Shown here piece after piece: positions 4,932 to 42,757 of a DNA stretch of 64,000 nucleotides. Positions within the stretch are counted from its first letter, which is position 1. Each line of letters opens with the position of its first letter. The notes beneath the pieces are model-generated. The model was not told the DNA's origin, did no database searches, and worked only from the letters and a program-made list of their open reading frames with translations. The stretch lies in sequence record KC801932. One strand, written 5' to 3'. The position numbers were made by a program, and so were the translations under genes. This DNA comes from Escherichia phage Lw1.

Positions 4932-5717
4932 ATGAAATCATTCAAAGAACTACTGTCTGAATCTGTTCAGACCAAAAAATTTGCTAAAACTGTTGATCTG
5001 GTTGACCGTGGTAATGCTTCAAAAGGTCAGATCGGTTTCCTGCACTTTGCACACGGTGCTGATTACGATGTGTATGCGCCGGACTCTCACGATCTCGCCT
5101 ACTTCGGTAAAGGTGTTGTTCGCCTGAAAGGTAAAACCACTGGTAAAACTCAGGCTGCATATGTTGACTGGGCGAAAGGTACGGTTTCTTTCTATAGCGG
5201 CGATCCGGCAGATGACCTGAAATTCGACAAGCCAGCGAAATTCAAAGGCGCTTCCCTGTACAAAGAAGCCGAAGAAAATCTGGATCTGTATAATCAGTTA
5301 GCGGAAGACTTCGAAATTGATGTACCGATGGATGAAGCACTGGTGAAAGGTAAGGTGTACAAGCTCCCAAGCAACGATATGCGCTTGCTGTATACCGGAC
5401 GTACCAAAAACAAGCCTACAGGTGAATACGCTGTGTTTACGGTTGTAGATGCCTCCGGTAAGCCTCGTCTGGTATCGGGTAAACGATTTACCCAGGAATA
5501 CAAAGGCGATATGCTGTCTAAACTGGTTCTCGCTGAATCGGAAGATCTGAACGAGGCCGCTAAAGGCATTCGCGAAAAAGTTATTGCGGTGTTGGTGAAG
5601 CGCGGGTTTAACGAAAAAGATGCAGAAAAGATGGTTGATAAAAACCTAAAAGATGCGATGAAAGTTCGCCCTGGTGCAACTCCAGGAAAACTAGCGGAAA
5701 TCGTGAGCACCTTGTAA
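4932..5717 (+). CDS. internal head protein with capsid targeting sequence (IPIII-like, lysine-rich)
   Basis: N-terminus MKSFKELLSE matches T4 CTS consensus MKTYQEFIAE (gp21 protease-cleaved leader); basic K-rich body; start at ATG 4932 rather than ORF-track 4836. Confidence 0.65.
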   Translation: MKSFKELLSESVQTKKFAKTVDLVDRGNASKGQIGFLHFAHGADYDVYAPDSHDLAYFGKGVVRLKGKTTGKTQAAYVDWAKGTVSFYSGDPADDLKFDKPAKFKGASLYKEAEENLDLYNQLAEDFEIDVPMDEALVKGKVYKLPSNDMRLLYTGRTKNKPTGEYAVFTVVDASGKPRLVSGKRFTQEYKGDMLSKLVLAESEDLNEAAKGIREKVIAVLVKRGFNEKDAEKMVDKNLKDAMKVRPGATPGKLAEIVSTL

Positions 5718-5721
5718 AAAT

Positions 5722-5753
5722 AAAGCCCCTTCCTTTCGGTTGGGGCTTTTTTT
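5722..5753. terminator. rho-independent terminator between convergent genes
   Basis: aaagccccttcctttcggttggggcttt + T-run; identical 28-nt sequence recurs at 40986..41013. Confidence 0.7.
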
Positions 5754-38336: not shown

Positions 38337-39635
38337 ATGAGTGAAAAACATTACACAATTCACAAGTTGATGCGTCAGTCTACGCTTCCCCCTGGTAAAC
38401 GCGAAAAGGTTATCAACGAAGCAACTGGAACGACCGACATCAACGTACAGAACACGCGCCCAGAACTGGTTTCTTTGACTCGCGCTGTTAACAACCTGAT
38501 CTATCATGAACTGGTTGCTGTACAAGAAACAAATTTACCCGTAGCAACTCTGTTTGGTGTTCGCTATCGTAACCCTAACGGCGACATGACTTTCTCCAGC
38601 GCTGCAACCTATTCAGGCCGCATATCTGGACGTACAGACATCGACGATATCGATCTGGCTAAGGCATACGTCAAAGGCGATTTATTCAAGCACGATGTCA
38701 CTGACGTTGTGTATGAGGTCATCGAACCTGTAACGCTAAACGCGCTGGATACTGATAAAGACACCGCAATCATGAAAGCTGTGTTCCAAAGTAAAATTCG
38801 TTTGGTTAGCGAAGCCGCAGACACTTCAAAATATGAAACCAGTGAAGATATCGCATCAACCTCTTTCCAGATGGATCGCTGGAACATTCCGGTTCGTTCA
38901 CGTAAGTTTAAAACTGAAATGACCGTGGAATTGATGCAGGATCTGGAAGCAAACCAGTTTGAAGCCGATGGGGTAATTGAAGATATCCTGGGTACGGTTG
39001 CAAGCGAAGAAGTCAACAAAGATATTATTCAGACGCTGATCACCGTTTCCAAACGATATAACGTTGATGGTGTAGTTGTCGATGGTATTTTTGACGGTAC
39101 AACCGCATACACTGCGAAGGATGCTCCAGCATTGGGCCGCATACTCTATCAATTAGCGTGTGAAATGGGTCAAGAAATGAATAGAACGACTTCATTTGAT
39201 GCAACCTACGTCCTCGCTAGTGCTCGCGTTGTAGGCGTTCTGGCTGCGTCTGGTTGGATGACCGAAACCGACGAACAACACCCGCTGGCAACTGGTAAAC
39301 TTCAAAACGGTTATTATGTCTATACCGACACGAATACACCGTTTGATTATCTGCTTACCGGATGCAAATACGATCTGGGTGATATGGATCACGTAGGTTC
39401 TCTGTTCTTCACTCCGTACACCGAAGCGGATGAAGCAGGTTCAATCAAGGTATCCGTAGATCCTGCATCACTGCAACCGAAAGTTGCTATTCTGATGCGT
39501 TACGGTTTATCTGTGAACCCATACACAACGGAATCCGACTCTGAACGGTTGACCAAAGGCGATGACTGGTCGAATCTGGCTGGTAAATCCAAACTCAGTC
39601 AAATCGTAGGTATTAAATTACCTAAGCTGGGTTAA
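38337..39635 (+). CDS. 24: capsid vertex protein gp24
   Basis: 432 aa; motifs LVSLTRA, SRKFKTEMTVELMQDLEAN, TLITVSKRY, LQP..A.L.RYGLS.NPYT shared with T4 gp24. Confidence 0.95.
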   Translation: MSEKHYTIHKLMRQSTLPPGKREKVINEATGTTDINVQNTRPELVSLTRAVNNLIYHELVAVQETNLPVATLFGVRYRNPNGDMTFSSAATYSGRISGRTDIDDIDLAKAYVKGDLFKHDVTDVVYEVIEPVTLNALDTDKDTAIMKAVFQSKIRLVSEAADTSKYETSEDIASTSFQMDRWNIPVRSRKFKTEMTVELMQDLEANQFEADGVIEDILGTVASEEVNKDIIQTLITVSKRYNVDGVVVDGIFDGTTAYTAKDAPALGRILYQLACEMGQEMNRTTSFDATYVLASARVVGVLAASGWMTETDEQHPLATGKLQNGYYVYTDTNTPFDYLLTGCKYDLGDMDHVGSLFFTPYTEADEAGSIKVSVDPASLQPKVAILMRYGLSVNPYTTESDSERLTKGDDWSNLAGKSKLSQIVGIKLPKLG

Positions 39636-39853: not shown

Positions 39854-39881
39854 TTGACTTCTTGATCATGATGGTTATAAT
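39854..39881 (+). promoter_or_regulatory. sigma70-type promoter for uvsY (TTGACT - 16 nt - TATAAT)
   Basis: Consensus-like -35 and exact -10 ~25 nt upstream of uvsY ATG. Confidence 0.5.
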
Positions 39882-39904: not shown

Positions 39905-40327
39905 ATGGCTGAACTAAAACTTGAAGATTTACAGGCTGAACTCGAAAAGGATATGTTGATCGACCCTCTGAAACTACAGAGTGAATCAGCAGACATTCCT
40001 AAGATTTGGTCTAAGTGGCTTCGATATCATTCGAATGCTAAGAAAAAACTGATCCAGCTACAGGCCAGGAAAGAAGCAGAAGTGAAAGAACGGCTTCTGT
40101 ACTATACTGGAAGACACGAAACCGAAATGACTGATGTCATTTACACGGGTTCAGGTGAAATCAAGATCGCGATCAACGGTGATCCGAAAATTGTTGAGGT
40201 TAACAAACTGATTCAGTATTTCGAACTGATTGCGGAATTCACCAGTAAAGCCCTGGACATTGTTAAGAACAAAGGATATTCTATCAAAAATATGTTGGAA
40301 ATCCGAAAACTTGAAAGTGGTGCATAA
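39905..40327 (+). CDS. uvsY: recombination mediator UvsY
   Basis: 140 aa; LEDLQ.EL.KD..ID..KLQ...A...K..SKWL..HS pattern like T4 UvsY. Confidence 0.85.
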   Translation: MAELKLEDLQAELEKDMLIDPLKLQSESADIPKIWSKWLRYHSNAKKKLIQLQARKEAEVKERLLYYTGRHETEMTDVIYTGSGEIKIAINGDPKIVEVNKLIQYFELIAEFTSKALDIVKNKGYSIKNMLEIRKLESGA

Positions 40328-40328
40328 A

Positions 40329-40511
40329 ATGGCAGAATTACAAGAAGACTGTAAATGTGTGGTTTGCAAAAGACCGATGGTGACTGCTACTGGTTTTGTT
40401 ACTGAATCTGGTCCCGTGTGTGGCCCTATCTGTGCGCAGTATTTGATTGATCGCAACAAATCCGGTCTGAATGAAGCTGACGATCTGAACGAAGTTCAGA
40501 TGTTGCTATAG
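40329..40511 (+). CDS. small Cys-rich protein (60 aa; CKCVVCKRP...CGPIC)
   Basis: ATG immediately after uvsY stop; C-terminal part of ORF-track 40230..40511. Confidence 0.5.
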   Translation: MAELQEDCKCVVCKRPMVTATGFVTESGPVCGPICAQYLIDRNKSGLNEADDLNEVQMLL

Positions 40512-40519
40512 GTGGAAAT

Positions 40520-40657
40520 ATGAACGACTATTCGAAAATCGACTTTAACGAAGTATTTCGTTTGCTGGGATTGATGGAAGAATGTGTGAACCATGTTCAT
40601 TCACTTCGAATTAAATTTGAAAGTGGTTGCAATGAAGATGAACATCCATATTTTTAG
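40520..40657 (+). CDS. small protein candidate (45 aa)
   Basis: AGGTGG SD before ATG 40520; below ORF-track cutoff. Confidence 0.35.
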   Translation: MNDYSKIDFNEVFRLLGLMEECVNHVHSLRIKFESGCNEDEHPYF

Positions 40658-40659
40658 GG

Positions 40660-40980
40660 TAGGTAAAAAGTTGCCATAGGCAAGACAAATCAAACTATAG
40701 GACAAACTTACGGATAGCCTAACGCCGAGGTGAGAACGTTAACTTTTGTCCGAGGCGGGTTTGAGTTCGAAACGCAAGGATCGGACGCTCTAAATACTGG
40801 TGTACCCCTTGTGGGGCTTGGGCTTGCCGTGTGGCGTACCCTTTTGCGCCGTCCGATAGAGTTTACTTTCGGCGGGGTGATTGGTAAGATACCTTCGAGT
40901 AAAGGCCAGTTAATTGTAATTCAGAATAGTACAGCACTGAAATAAAATAAATGTATGTGTCGGAACAAACGGTTTCCGAA
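40660..40980. other. GC-rich non-coding region with multiple short inverted repeats; candidate structured RNA
   Basis: No convincing ORF (71-aa ORF 40730..40945 has atypical composition); local GC-rich segments such as ccccttgtggggcttgggcttgccgtgtggcgtaccc unlike surrounding AT-rich phage DNA. Confidence 0.3.
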
Positions 40981-40985
40981 ATTAA

Positions 40986-41017
40986 AAAGCCCCTTCCTTT
41001 CGGTTGGGGCTTTCTTT
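40986..41017. terminator. rho-independent terminator between convergent genes (same sequence as 5722..5749)
   Basis: aaagccccttcctttcggttggggcttt + T-rich tract. Confidence 0.7.
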
Positions 41018-41248
41018 TTAAAACTTCTCTTCTTCTCCGGTTTCGAGTTCGGCTTTCAGTTCTTCTCGCCGTCCCTTGATCGCGTCACGCATTGAAATAT
41101 CATCGGATGCTGCGACCTCGACTTCTTTCACGCGTGTGTTGTAATACTTTTCAAGTTCTTTCAAACCGTCCAGTGTCCGGCACGAAGCAACCTTATTCAT
41201 GAAATCATCAATCGCGGCTTCGTTTACAAATTTGGTAAAACTTTTCAT
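41018..41248 (-). CDS. uvsW.1: UvsW.1 small helicase-associated protein
   Basis: 76 aa directly downstream of uvsW on the same strand. Confidence 0.75.
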   Translation of the reverse strand: MKSFTKFVNEAAIDDFMNKVASCRTLDGLKELEKYYNTRVKEVEVAASDDISMRDAIKGRREELKAELETGEEEKF

Positions 41249-41257
41249 TGTAACCTC

Positions 41258-42757
41258 TTAAATGTCTACTTGTTTGATCACGTAGTCGAATCGTTCTTCG
41301 TTGTAGATCCGCACACGTTCGATCGCATGTTTCATGCCGTAGTTCGTCGCACTGTATTTATTTTTAGCTGTTTTTGACTTCGACAGCGTAGCCAGGTTAT
41401 CGACGATATCCCATACAGTTGCAAGCAGTTTCGAACCATGCTTACGAAGAACACGTCCGATTGACTGTTTCACAACAACAGCGGATTTGCAAGGATGTGC
41501 AAAAATGATGTGATGCAGGTTCTTGATTGAAATACCTGTACTCAGTACCCCGATCGAACCGATGACGATTAAACCTTTCGTCGATTCTGCAATCTTCTTC
41601 ATTTCGTTACGATCGTCAATCCCTGTATCACCGTTAATCAGTACAACGTTATCGTAAACCTTGCTCAACTGCTCGTATAGCCATTTTCCGTGTTCTTTGT
41701 ACCGGAACATCACGAATGTGTTTTCGTTCTTCTCACGGGACAGTTTAAGGGCTAATTTAAGAATCCATGAGTTGCGCCTTGTATGGCTCGTAACGTATTT
41801 GATTTCGGTCTGGTAGTCCGCACCTTTTAACTTCTTAACCTCTTCTTCTTTGTATCGAAGAAAGATTGTGTTAATTTTCAGGTTGGTGACTTGTCCATCA
41901 TCCATCAGACGACGCGTATCAACTGGTTTAAAGACTTTACCGAACGCACCGATGTATTGCATCATGTTTGTTTTCCCTTCTTTCAGGGAACCGGATAAGC
42001 CCAGTTTGAAGATACATTGATCCATCGTGTCGATAATCTTTTTGATGCTCATACCTGTTGAGAGGTGGCATTCATCAACCATCAAGCACATGAACTGTTG
42101 GAACCATTCGGCAGGCATTTTAACCGCTGATTGCCAGGTTGAAACGTAAATCAACGCGTTACTGTTTTTTGCTGTGCCGGAACGGATACCAAGCATTGCC
42201 GATTTCGGGAACAGTCGATAGTTTGCGATGTCTTCGATCATTTGGTCAACAAGTGCGGTAGTCGGAACGATAATCAACACCTTTCCGCTGTAATGTTCCA
42301 GACACCAACGAGAGATAAGCCCCTGAATCAGAGATTTACCTGCTGATGTTGGCAGGTTCAGGACACCGCGACGGTTTTTGATACCGTGGAATACCGATTC
42401 TCTTTGATACCAGTACGGATCTATTTGTTTGTCACCGTCATAAACTGGATGGTCTTGAATCCACTTGTCAAAACTTTCCTGCGTGATATCCTCAGTTTCA
42501 TGGATTTTTGGATCAACCCAGATTGAATACCCGCGAGACTCTGCAAATTTTGATACCAGATAGGCTAACCCATACGGAAGTTTACCGTTGTAGTCCATCA
42601 GGTAGATATACCCGTTCCATCCACCATATTTGTATTTGGCTTGATACTGATAGCCTGGGGGCTGGAATGAAAAATAGTCACGCAGTTCATAGACTATGTT
42701 AGCGTCTGCCTGAATCTGTACGTGGCTTGTGTTTAAATATTTGACTTCAATATCCAC
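41258..42757 (-). CDS. uvsW: UvsW RNA-DNA and DNA-DNA helicase
   Basis: 499 aa; LNLPTSAGKS (Walker A), MVDECH (DExH box), IGRVLRKHGSK, ATVWD motifs as in T4 UvsW. Confidence 0.95.
   Translation of the reverse strand: MDIEVKYLNTSHVQIQADANIVYELRDYFSFQPPGYQYQAKYKYGGWNGYIYLMDYNGKLPYGLAYLVSKFAESRGYSIWVDPKIHETEDITQESFDKWIQDHPVYDGDKQIDPYWYQRESVFHGIKNRRGVLNLPTSAGKSLIQGLISRWCLEHYSGKVLIIVPTTALVDQMIEDIANYRLFPKSAMLGIRSGTAKNSNALIYVSTWQSAVKMPAEWFQQFMCLMVDECHLSTGMSIKKIIDTMDQCIFKLGLSGSLKEGKTNMMQYIGAFGKVFKPVDTRRLMDDGQVTNLKINTIFLRYKEEEVKKLKGADYQTEIKYVTSHTRRNSWILKLALKLSREKNENTFVMFRYKEHGKWLYEQLSKVYDNVVLINGDTGIDDRNEMKKIAESTKGLIVIGSIGVLSTGISIKNLHHIIFAHPCKSAVVVKQSIGRVLRKHGSKLLATVWDIVDNLATLSKSKTAKNKYSATNYGMKHAIERVRIYNEERFDYVIKQVDI

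Follow-up and report, generated by a model that had tools for sequence, protein, structure and literature searches.

Two independently inherited structured RNA modules between uvsY.-2 and uvsW.1 in the T4-type Escherichia phage Lw1

The uvsY.-2/uvsW.1 interval

In Escherichia phage Lw1 (sequence record KC801932), a T4-type phage of the genus Pseudotevenvirus (RB16/RB43/Margaery group), the uvsY operon runs on the plus strand towards the convergent genes uvsW.1 and uvsW, and a short GC-rich interval lies between the two transcription units. We analysed this interval within a stretch of 64,000 nucleotides of the record (hereafter the window, to which all positions refer unless another sequence is named), following up a preliminary description that had singled it out as poor in open reading frames (ORFs), dense in inverted repeats and a candidate for either a structured non-coding RNA or a protein-binding site. 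The interval proved to be not one element but two unrelated, independently inherited RNA modules, here called module A and module B, together with a hairpin and a terminator (Table 1). The boundaries first proposed were accurate, as the last small ORF does end at 40657 (40520-40657, 45 aa, phrog_12503), a terminator is present 3' of the region, and positions 40658-40985 hold no credible gene, their sole ORF being a frame of 71 aa with a GTG start (40730-40945). The local GC richness is equally real, with 53.5% at 40700-40899 versus ~35-47% in flanking windows. Citrobacter phages Xman, CfP1 and Miller and coliphage RB16 share ~91.5% identity with the 10 kb around the region.

Table 1. Genes, signals and RNA elements at and around the interval, in window positions
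Feature	Position	Strand	Remarks
gp24	38337-39635	+	
sigma-70-type promoter	39854-39881		near-consensus TTGACT-16-TATAAT, 5' of uvsY
uvsY	39905-40327	+	
uvsY.-2	40329-40511	+	60 aa, DUF2685
small ORF	40520-40657	+	45 aa, phrog_12503
Module A	40661-40788	+	structured RNA of ~130 nt, subtype A1
Module A, 5' end	40661-40683	+	purine-rich, Shine-Dalgarno-like leader AGGUAAAAAG, then hairpin P1
Hairpin P1	40671-40683	+	UUGCC-AUA-GGCAA
Helix P2	40690-40696 with 40758-40764	+	encloses P3 and the inner domain
Helix P3	40700-40706 with 40745-40751	+	
Hairpin P4	40765-40786	+	GUUCGA, loop AACGCAAGGA, UCGGAC
Late-promoter-like box	40789-40796	+	TCTAAATA, 7/8 match to T4-type TATAAATA, 5 nt 5' of the GTACCCC hairpin
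Module B	40800-40956	+	structured RNA of ~155 nt
Hairpin hp1	40802-40820	+	CCCC-UUGU-GGGG (stem 40805-40808 with 40813-40816), then CUUG
Module B, central domain, outer helices	40821-40824 with 40904-40907; 40826-40829 with 40896-40900	+	domain 40821-40907
Module B, long bulged hairpin	40833-40837 with 40889-40893; 40840-40859 with 40866-40884	+	terminal loop ARUUUA
Module B, 3' domain	40920-40956	+	hairpin UUCAG (40920-40924) with CUGAA (40937-40941)
Candidate H-type pseudoknot	40929-40932 with 40953-40956	+	loop GUAC with tail GUAU, A-rich linker
Hairpin E	40960-40979	+	UCGGAA, loop CAAACGGU, UUCCGA
Bidirectional intrinsic terminator	40989-41019	both	GCCCCTTCC-TTTC-GGTTGGGGC and T-tract (RNA GCCCCUUCC-UUUC-GGUUGGGGC and U-tract)
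uvsW.1	41018-41248	minus	convergent to the uvsY operon
uvsW	41258-42757	minus	convergent to the uvsY operon

Folds of modules A and B

We aligned module B from 12 distinct sequences, metagenome copies included, which represent five lineages: window/Margaery/RB43, JC221, Slopekvirus, a recombinant in KLB21 and the distant Phynn. Positions 40791-40990 are 95-96% identical in Margaery, Cronuts and the leB type and 91.5% identical in RB43, the module B core (40833-40955) is ~82% identical in ~90 Slopekvirus phages (KP15, Miro, Matisse and others), and the module occurs also in JC221 and in Pantoea phage Phynn. RNAalifold assigned 32 base pairs to this alignment, 16 of them compensatory, and 98.7% of the cells were paired, versus 40-45% when the 3' partners were slid by 1-3 columns; the slid controls gave 0-5 compensatory pairs. 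None of 500 shuffles reached the observed values on four of five measures, a statistic that is inflated by the relatedness of the sequences. Both sides have changed in 10 of the 15 pairs of helix 4, and in Phynn the main helix is rewritten from CCG-U-CCGA/UCGG-CGG to CUG-U-CUAAUGA/UCAUUAG-CAG with the bulged U and the ARUUUA loop retained. A covariance model of module B (R1) scored 182.7 bits at the module and detected no second copy in the window.

Two of the inverted repeats that had been picked out by eye belong to this module: cccc-ttgt-gggg is a real hairpin (40805-40816), the stem and loop of hp1, and gcgccg...cggcgg is the main helix (40840-40884). Hairpin hp1 was present in every phage compared, with or without module A or the module B core, and it stands where a late transcript would start. 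At the other end of the module, the 3' hairpin carries a 12-nt loop, AAUAGUACAGCA, which is conserved as AAUAGUACNGCA, and three of the five stem pairs are compensatory. This loop probably pairs with the downstream AAAUGUAY to form an H-type pseudoknot: the four proposed pairs are kept in 9/9 sequences (tail GUAU or GUAC, with a G.U pair in the window), while a fifth pair that we tested (40933 with 40952) fails in four of the nine. Such a pseudoknot would explain the conserved AAAUGUAC 'junction' motif (AAATGTAC). Hairpin E, beyond the module, is common to the Margaery type; KP15 has UUGGG...CCCAA at this place, with two compensatory positions by inspection. The match of Rfam family Yfr10 to hairpin E (29 bits versus a gathering score of 43) reflects only the shape of a hairpin followed by a terminator.

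Module A occurs once in the window. Positions 40655-40821 are 100% identical in RB16 and Miller (the module A match extends over 161 nt), and identity is 98.8-99.4% in CfP1 and Invicta (98-99% with Xman included) and ~88% in Yersinia phage JC221. From four subtype-A1 sequences (window/RB16, CfP1, Invicta and JC221) RNAalifold derived 36 pairs, six of them compensatory. Five of the compensatory pairs fall within P2 and P4, two in P2 (UCAAAC/GUUUGA in the window, ACGAAC/GUUCGU in JC221) and three in P4 (GUUUCC...GGAAAC in JC221), and every one-sided helix change, including all those in the P2/P3 domain of CfP1, Invicta and JC221, yields a G.U pair. Sequences gtccga (40748-40753) and tcggac (40781-40786), earlier read as one inverted repeat, are both present and do not pair with each other, the former lying in P3 and the latter pairing with GTTCGA (40765-40770) as P4. 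Nor is GTTCGAA the T-loop-like motif it had been taken for: we rejected a T-loop of the form GTTCRANYC with a 5-bp T-stem, as GTTCGA is the 5' strand of P4 and forms a 6-bp helix with TCGGAC that covaries to GTTTCC/GGAAAC in JC221.

Four further subtypes of module A, in Roth22 and Lemur (43 Slopekvirus records), in Phynn and in an IMG/VR contig (L075), have a common scaffold with A1, comprising a purine-rich leader, a P1-type hairpin, a joiner GAC(A/G)AA, the closing helix P2 and then a hairpin with a ..GCAA.. loop. The P1 form (A/U)UGCC-AYA-GGCA(U/A) is kept in 5/5 subtypes (window, JC221, Roth22, Phynn and L075), its closing pair covarying between U-A and A-U, and the P4-equivalent hairpin with the conserved ..GCAA.. 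loop directly follows P2 in every subtype (GCGAU...AUCGC in Roth22 and Phynn, GAACC...GGUUC in L075). The inner domains are unrelated between subtypes, those of A1 and A4 being completely different on comparison by inspection. Read as codons after AGGUAAAAAG, P1 gives UUG-CCA-UAG (Met-Pro-stop), and AUG-CCA-UAG in Roth22 and Phynn; the leader and this mini-ORF may act as a 5' stabiliser that binds ribosomes, or the reading may be coincidental. The idea of a minigene, with the Shine-Dalgarno sequence and Met-Pro-stop in P1, is weakened by L075, which keeps the hairpin and loses the stop (CAG for UAG). Because the L075 loop is ACA and Met-Pro-stop is lost, the hairpin and not the mini-ORF is the conserved feature of P1.

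G.U pairs occupy 59 cells in the supported helices of module B and 15 in those of module A. Canonical pairs make up 98.7% of the plus-strand cells in B and 100% in A, where the P1 hairpin was substituted by hand, versus 83.6% and 88.6% on the mirrored minus strand. Because of these G.U pairs, the selected fold is that of a plus-strand RNA and not of a DNA cruciform or a minus-strand transcript. The candidate structured non-coding RNA of the preliminary description is thus strongly supported for both modules, in that folding with homologous regions recovered a conserved structure for each, and the helices of either half survive sequence change by compensatory substitutions or by substitutions that leave a G.U pair. 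That the two modules are plus-strand RNA structures maintained by selection is, in our judgement, very likely.

The region does not behave as coding DNA. The 71-aa ORF has no PHROG or Pfam family, while the flanking small ORFs (45, 60 and 76 aa) match a PHROG family in three of three cases and Pfam in two; it is not a conserved gene because it spans the junction of A and B, which are inherited separately. Across the module B core the sequences have neither a start codon nor a Shine-Dalgarno sequence in common (in RB43 and Phynn a start 5' of the core is missing altogether), the C-termini of the frame diverge through 1-nt indels and through A-runs of 6, 7 or 8, and the variable columns distribute over the codon positions as 12/11/9, with no 3-periodicity. 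The +2 and -0 frames are open across the core in all 12 sequences, as expected because module B has a long near-palindromic helix. The earlier doubt about a coding frame therefore holds as far as start and end are concerned, no frame having a conserved start or C-terminus. GenBank records place 'hypothetical proteins' over the RNA modules that are mutually inconsistent, lying on both strands and in different frames: Roth22 (L008, 955-1318), Lemur (L053, 442-768) and JC221 (L004, 1551-1727) on the minus strand, Cronuts (L002, 1741-1857) and KLB21 (L009, 1188-1313) on the plus strand. These are probably gene-caller artefacts.

Cassettes and transcription signals at the locus

A BLAST search against 50,697 phage genomes returned no record that covers at least 80% of the region, and none with the A1 + B combination of the window. 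The matches divide into a left and a right part that overlap by ~30 nt only (TAAATAC....GTACCCCTTGTGGGGCTTG), and phages lacking the left part show a clean 130-nt presence/absence in the alignment. Module A is 100% identical to that of RB16 and Miller though the genomes differ by ~8.5%, and identity breaks exactly at the preceding stop codon; full identity in ~91.5% surroundings points to a recent exchange of the cassette, to strong constraint or to both. Each module occurs once per genome, and invariably at the uvsY.-2/uvsW.1 locus.

We counted at least 12 architectures at this locus in the group formed by Pseudotevenvirus, Slopekvirus, JC221 and Phynn, built from modules A1-A4, B, C, D, F, G and H (the letters C, D, F, G and H are labels given in this analysis). 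Among them are A1 + G (RB16, CfP1, Invicta), B (Margaery; KP15; Miro), B + H (RB43), A2 + B (Roth22), B + D (KLB21), A1 + C + B + D (JC221), a tRNA-like gene followed by A3 + F + B + H (Phynn), C + G (L071), A4 + F + G (L075) and F + G (L077). In T4 the gap between uvsW and uvsY.-2 measures 55 bp (L088, 2942-2996), and in ten more distant T4-like contigs (L078-L087) it has only a small hairpin and a terminator. These hairpins, CCAC-TTGT-GTGG (e.g. GCCAC-TTGT-GTGGT) or CCAAC-TTG-TTGG, are kept in most of the distant T4-like phages and are hp1-like in position and loop, which suggests hp1 as the ancestral element, with the RNA cassettes inserted around it.

The additional modules, apparently structured RNAs as well, lie at 1640-1836 and 1990-2150 of the JC221 sequence (L004), at 1325-1470 of the KLB21 sequence (L009) and, on the reverse strand 3' of uvsW.1, in L071, L075 and L077. 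Compensatory changes are visible by eye in module D (AGGUGG...CACCU in JC221, AGGCGG...CGCCU in KLB21) and in module G when RB16, CfP1 and L075 are compared (AGAAUAG, then CGGUG...CACCG in RB16 versus UGUG...CACA in L075). The tRNA-like gene of Phynn (L052, 1209-1277, 69 nt) sits at the same locus; ARAGORN calls it tRNA-Ser(gct), and it matches the Rfam family of transfer-messenger RNA (tmRNA; RF00023) with 40 bits at a gathering score of 47, from model position 1 to 374. Its acceptor stem, GGGGAUA/UAUCUCC, contains a G3.U pair, and the ACCA end is encoded; the gene resembles the tRNA-like domain of a tmRNA without the mRNA part, or an odd tRNA of alanine identity.

Small ORFs precede the array. 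The last one or ones are tiny (16-47 aa), acidic and very variable in length (window, L003-L006), with coordinates 40520-40657 in the window, ~1452-1502 in L003, ~1357-1500 in L004, 1410-1496 in L005 and ~1066-1146 in L006. They end in a repeated D-E-(H/R)-P-D-(F/L) motif (...GCFEDEHPDF*, ...DERPDL...), the C-terminus of the 45-aa ORF in the window being DEHPYF, and the stop codon of the last ORF abuts the late promoter or the RNA start. UvsY.-2 itself is zinc-ribbon-like (CxxC...C...C), and the KLB21 annotation notes an HHpred similarity to ribosomal protein L24e, an RNA-binding fold; a link to the RNA modules is doubtful because UvsY.-2 is kept in T4, where the modules are absent.

The sequence signals for transcription vary among relatives. 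A perfect TATAAATA occurs at the position and spacing of the window's late-promoter-like box in KP15, KLB21 and two environmental copies (metagenome, IMG/VR; L063 and L026), where it follows the stop codon of the last small ORF and precedes hp1, as GGTATAAATACTAGCGTACCC. Miro has the variant CATAAATA at this site, Margaery and RB43 have AGTAAATA, and in Phynn and L075 a perfect TATAAATA lies 5' of the A-type module. The Miro unit comprises the promoter, module B and the terminator only, in ~200 nt with the 5' hairpin first, which is the arrangement of a self-contained gene of the small RNA (sRNA) type, as judged from its sequence elements. The terminator serves the RNA array and the convergent uvsW.1 in common. 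Its 22-nt core, GCCCCTTCCTTTCGGTTGGGGC, is found in two identical copies in the window (5725-5746 and 40989-41010), the former following an unrelated coding sequence (4932-5717), and in 2-3 copies per relative genome, and it is present also in two phage contigs of ~77 kb. Because an identical copy stands behind an unrelated coding sequence and relatives carry several copies, the terminator is generic and not locus-specific. In L075 and L077 the uvsW.1 locus has its copy in inverted orientation, and a repeated terminator of this kind could serve as a recombination joint.

Interpretation and comparison with known systems

On the basis of conserved plus-strand folds, modular inheritance and the promoter and terminator context, we favour, with moderate confidence, the view that the two structured non-coding RNAs may be stable accessory RNAs that bind or decoy a host or phage protein during infection, mainly late. 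That the modules are discrete functional RNAs, rather than purely cis-acting structures of a 3' untranslated region (3'-UTR), appears fairly probable. The RNAs would be made as the 3' part of a uvsY-operon transcript that starts from the promoter at 39854-39881, in which we found no convincing terminator before 40989, and for module A this would be the simplest origin. For module B, a gp55-type late promoter directly 5' of hp1 is a probable second source of transcripts, and the 5' hairpin and the terminator would stabilise the RNA products. The modules would act through their folded shape, binding or decoying a protein, rather than as antisense regulators. We infer action by shape because loops and joiners are conserved in sequence, stems covary, a pseudoknot is possible, module A sets a variable insert in its scaffold, cassettes are swapped among ~91%-identical genomes and no target complementarity came to light; RNAduplex comparison of six conserved segments with 52 start regions in the window gave no pairing better than shuffled controls.

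Several observations weigh against this interpretation. The promoter 5' of module B is imperfect in the window (TCTAAATA, 7/8), and module A has no recognisable promoter of its own there. Single-sequence folding is unremarkable, with z = -1.7 for the whole 366 nt on the plus strand and z = -1.6 for module A, and because the folding energy is unexceptional the case for structure rests on comparative evidence. For module A the covariation comes essentially from one divergent sequence, JC221, and from the by-eye comparison of subtypes, and in the pseudoknot two pairs are compensatory, in Phynn only (loop GACACA, tail UGUGUC). The family is phylogenetically narrow. Finally, the protein-binding or decoy mode is suggested by the conservation pattern together with the negative scan of the 52 start regions. 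What the sequences show directly is conservation, plus-strand RNA structure, non-coding status, modular inheritance and the setting of promoter and terminator signals; transcription, stability and a binding partner or function of the RNAs are predictions.

The modules could instead act in cis alone, as 3'-UTR stabilisers or insulators of the uvsY-operon mRNA that block exonucleases or buffer convergent transcription and give no separate RNA product. Consistent with this, the region forms the 3' end of the uvsY operon 5' of a common bidirectional terminator, T4 and distant T4-like phages already have one small hairpin and a terminator there, and the module A of the window lacks its own promoter. 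We nonetheless regard this account as unlikely, if worth keeping in sight: a generic stabiliser has no need of several helices spread over ~300 nt, with loops conserved in sequence, a closing helix of long range and perhaps a pseudoknot, and T4 manages with 55 bp; in several relatives a perfect late promoter stands after the last ORF and ahead of the array, which makes an RNA-only transcription unit; and close relatives carry wholly different modules at this place, which argues for module-specific functions. The modules might also be passengers, that is, non-functional relics of recombination cassettes or decayed genes (remnants of tRNA-like genes or mobile elements) in a tolerant gap, whose flanks (TAAATA and hairpin, AAATGTAC, terminator) would act as joints like those of PeSL motifs, which consist of a sigma-70 early (or middle) promoter and a stem-loop, flank ORFs in hyperplastic regions and are described as mediating the shuffling of modules between close relatives among T4-type phages (PMC2839356, PMC4122927). 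The number of module combinations at one locus (at least 12), the conserved junction motifs and multi-copy terminator, and the tRNA-like gene of Phynn at the same place all fit such a scenario. It accounts for the movement of the modules and not for their conservation, however, as relics would not keep pairing through many compensatory substitutions across genera, 100% identity of module A amid a ~91% genome is unexpected for a neutral relic, and the modules are single-copy and always at this locus, unlike tRNAs or any known element; we consider it improbable.

Translation of a small protein, either the 71-aa GTG ORF or a peptide of ~33-44 aa in the +2 frame of module B (core RTLLRRPIEFTFGGVIGKIPSS), would agree with the openness of the +2 frame in 12/12 sequences, with annotations that call a protein of 39-42 aa and with a hand count in which about half of the +2-frame substitutions are synonymous among closer relatives. 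This explanation seems very unlikely to us in view of the module junction crossed by the 71-aa ORF, the missing common start and Shine-Dalgarno sequence, the frameshifted C-termini, the flat 12/11/9 columns and the missing PHROG and Pfam matches, and in Phynn most of the peptide has changed (RCCLMKFIISSIV), whereas double substitutions preserve 10 base pairs. An element acting as DNA, be it a replication origin, a protein-binding site (the second option of the preliminary description) or a cruciform, could be suspected from the inverted repeats, the locally raised GC content and the T4 origin oriF annotated at uvsY. We hold this for the least plausible of all, since the many invariant G.U pairs of the helices would turn into A.C mismatches on the opposite strand or in a cruciform, oriF of T4 is situated at the promoter and start of uvsY, at the far side of the gene, and no direct repeats resembling binding sites are present. 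A replication origin was rejected on the position of oriF, at the uvsY promoter and not downstream.

Searches for known elements did not assign the modules to any. ARAGORN found no tRNA gene in the whole 64-kb window, in agreement with the failure to build a cloverleaf by eye, and at the locus none in 10 of 11 relatives, the one of Phynn lying outside modules A and B. Rfam 15 gave no match in the window at the gathering score; relaxing to E up to 10 brought up sub-threshold matches only, which stem from the terminator and hairpin E and leave module A uncovered, and the modules of nine relatives were likewise without a match. As ARAGORN and Rfam were both blank in the window, we dismissed a tRNA or tmRNA identity. 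Origin from or mimicry of the host found no support from blastn against 5,426 E. coli genomes (no match), and a repeated or mobile element was discarded, modules A and B each occurring once in the window and once per relative genome. Scans of IMG/VR and of one metagenome gave only copies from the same known lineages and chance matches inside coding regions, and one scan of GTDB gave at least 120 matches in unrelated bacteria that were judged to be chance from the expected count, uninspected. By inspection we further rejected a CsrA-type sponge with GGA loops, as GGA motifs are not conserved across subtypes, and an anticodon-loop decoy, as loop sizes and sequences do not fit. A literature search found nothing on an RNA at the uvsY.-2/uvsW.1 locus. 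The modules belong to no catalogued RNA family and are unannotated in the records examined; among phage-encoded small stable RNAs, what is unusual about them is that they are organised as exchangeable cassettes at a single conserved locus.

Beyond tRNAs, very few non-coding RNAs have been recognised in T4-type phages, and rnaC and rnaD have been without a known function for decades; the locus described here would add two structured RNAs, and at least eight across relatives, all unannotated, with clear covariation and in a defined transcription unit. The system is tractable, as the elements are short, do not look essential and vary naturally in their presence among therapeutic-type phages of Klebsiella, Enterobacter, Cronobacter and Citrobacter, which opens to study the use that a virulent phage makes of structured RNAs, and there is a practical side in that many genome records bear spurious 'hypothetical proteins' over the modules (Roth22, Lemur, JC221, Cronuts, KLB21). 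The narrow host and phage range limits the significance. A more far-reaching proposal, which we put forward as a speculation with the odds clearly against it, is that the locus, in Pseudotevenvirus and Slopekvirus phages and their relatives, might be a late-promoter-driven, hypervariable 'RNA island', an array with swapped-in cassettes (modules A1-A4, B to D, F to H and the tRNA-like gene) in which each cassette is a shape-specific decoy or inhibitor of a host factor or defence. If so, it would be the RNA counterpart of the 'accessory islands' of phage anti-defence proteins, and the variable inner domain of module A on its constant scaffold would be the part that carries specificity.

Among known RNAs, T4 rnaC and rnaD come close in several respects, as they too are non-coding, structured RNAs of a T4-type phage, 119-139 nt long and arranged head to tail with other stable RNA genes, and the Phynn locus likewise has a tRNA-like gene beside RNA modules. 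They differ in location, rnaC and rnaD lying in a tRNA cluster and the present modules between uvsY.-2 and uvsW.1 with no tRNA in 64 kb. From a reading of the sequence and general knowledge we take rnaC to have a tRNA-like 3' end, and the modules of the window have no such end. Homology was rejected for module B, as model R1 was blank at E up to 10 in the T4 sequence that holds rnaC, rnaD and the tRNA cluster (L067); module A was compared with rnaC and rnaD by eye only.

Enterobacterial sRNAs such as CpxQ and SroC, which derive from 3'-UTRs or share an operon's terminator, act by short seed pairing with Hfq. Like them, the modules stand at an operon 3' end, end at the intrinsic terminator of the operon with its U-tract and have A/U-rich stretches before it. 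Unlike them, they are far more elaborate in structure and show no target complementarity above background in the 52 start regions scanned.

The PeSL motifs, finally, offer a parallel to the mode of inheritance, since the swapped modules are likewise bounded by conserved motifs, namely the TAAATA late-promoter-like box with hp1, the AAATGTAC motif and the multi-copy terminator. A PeSL composite motif recurs many times per genome; of the motifs here, the terminator has two copies in the window and the TAAATA and hp1 boundary motif occurs there once. By contrast with PeSL, the promoter element is of the late type, recombination at the joints is putative, and the cargo is structured RNA instead of ORFs, so that the idea of modular shuffling would be extended from ORFs to RNA cargo.

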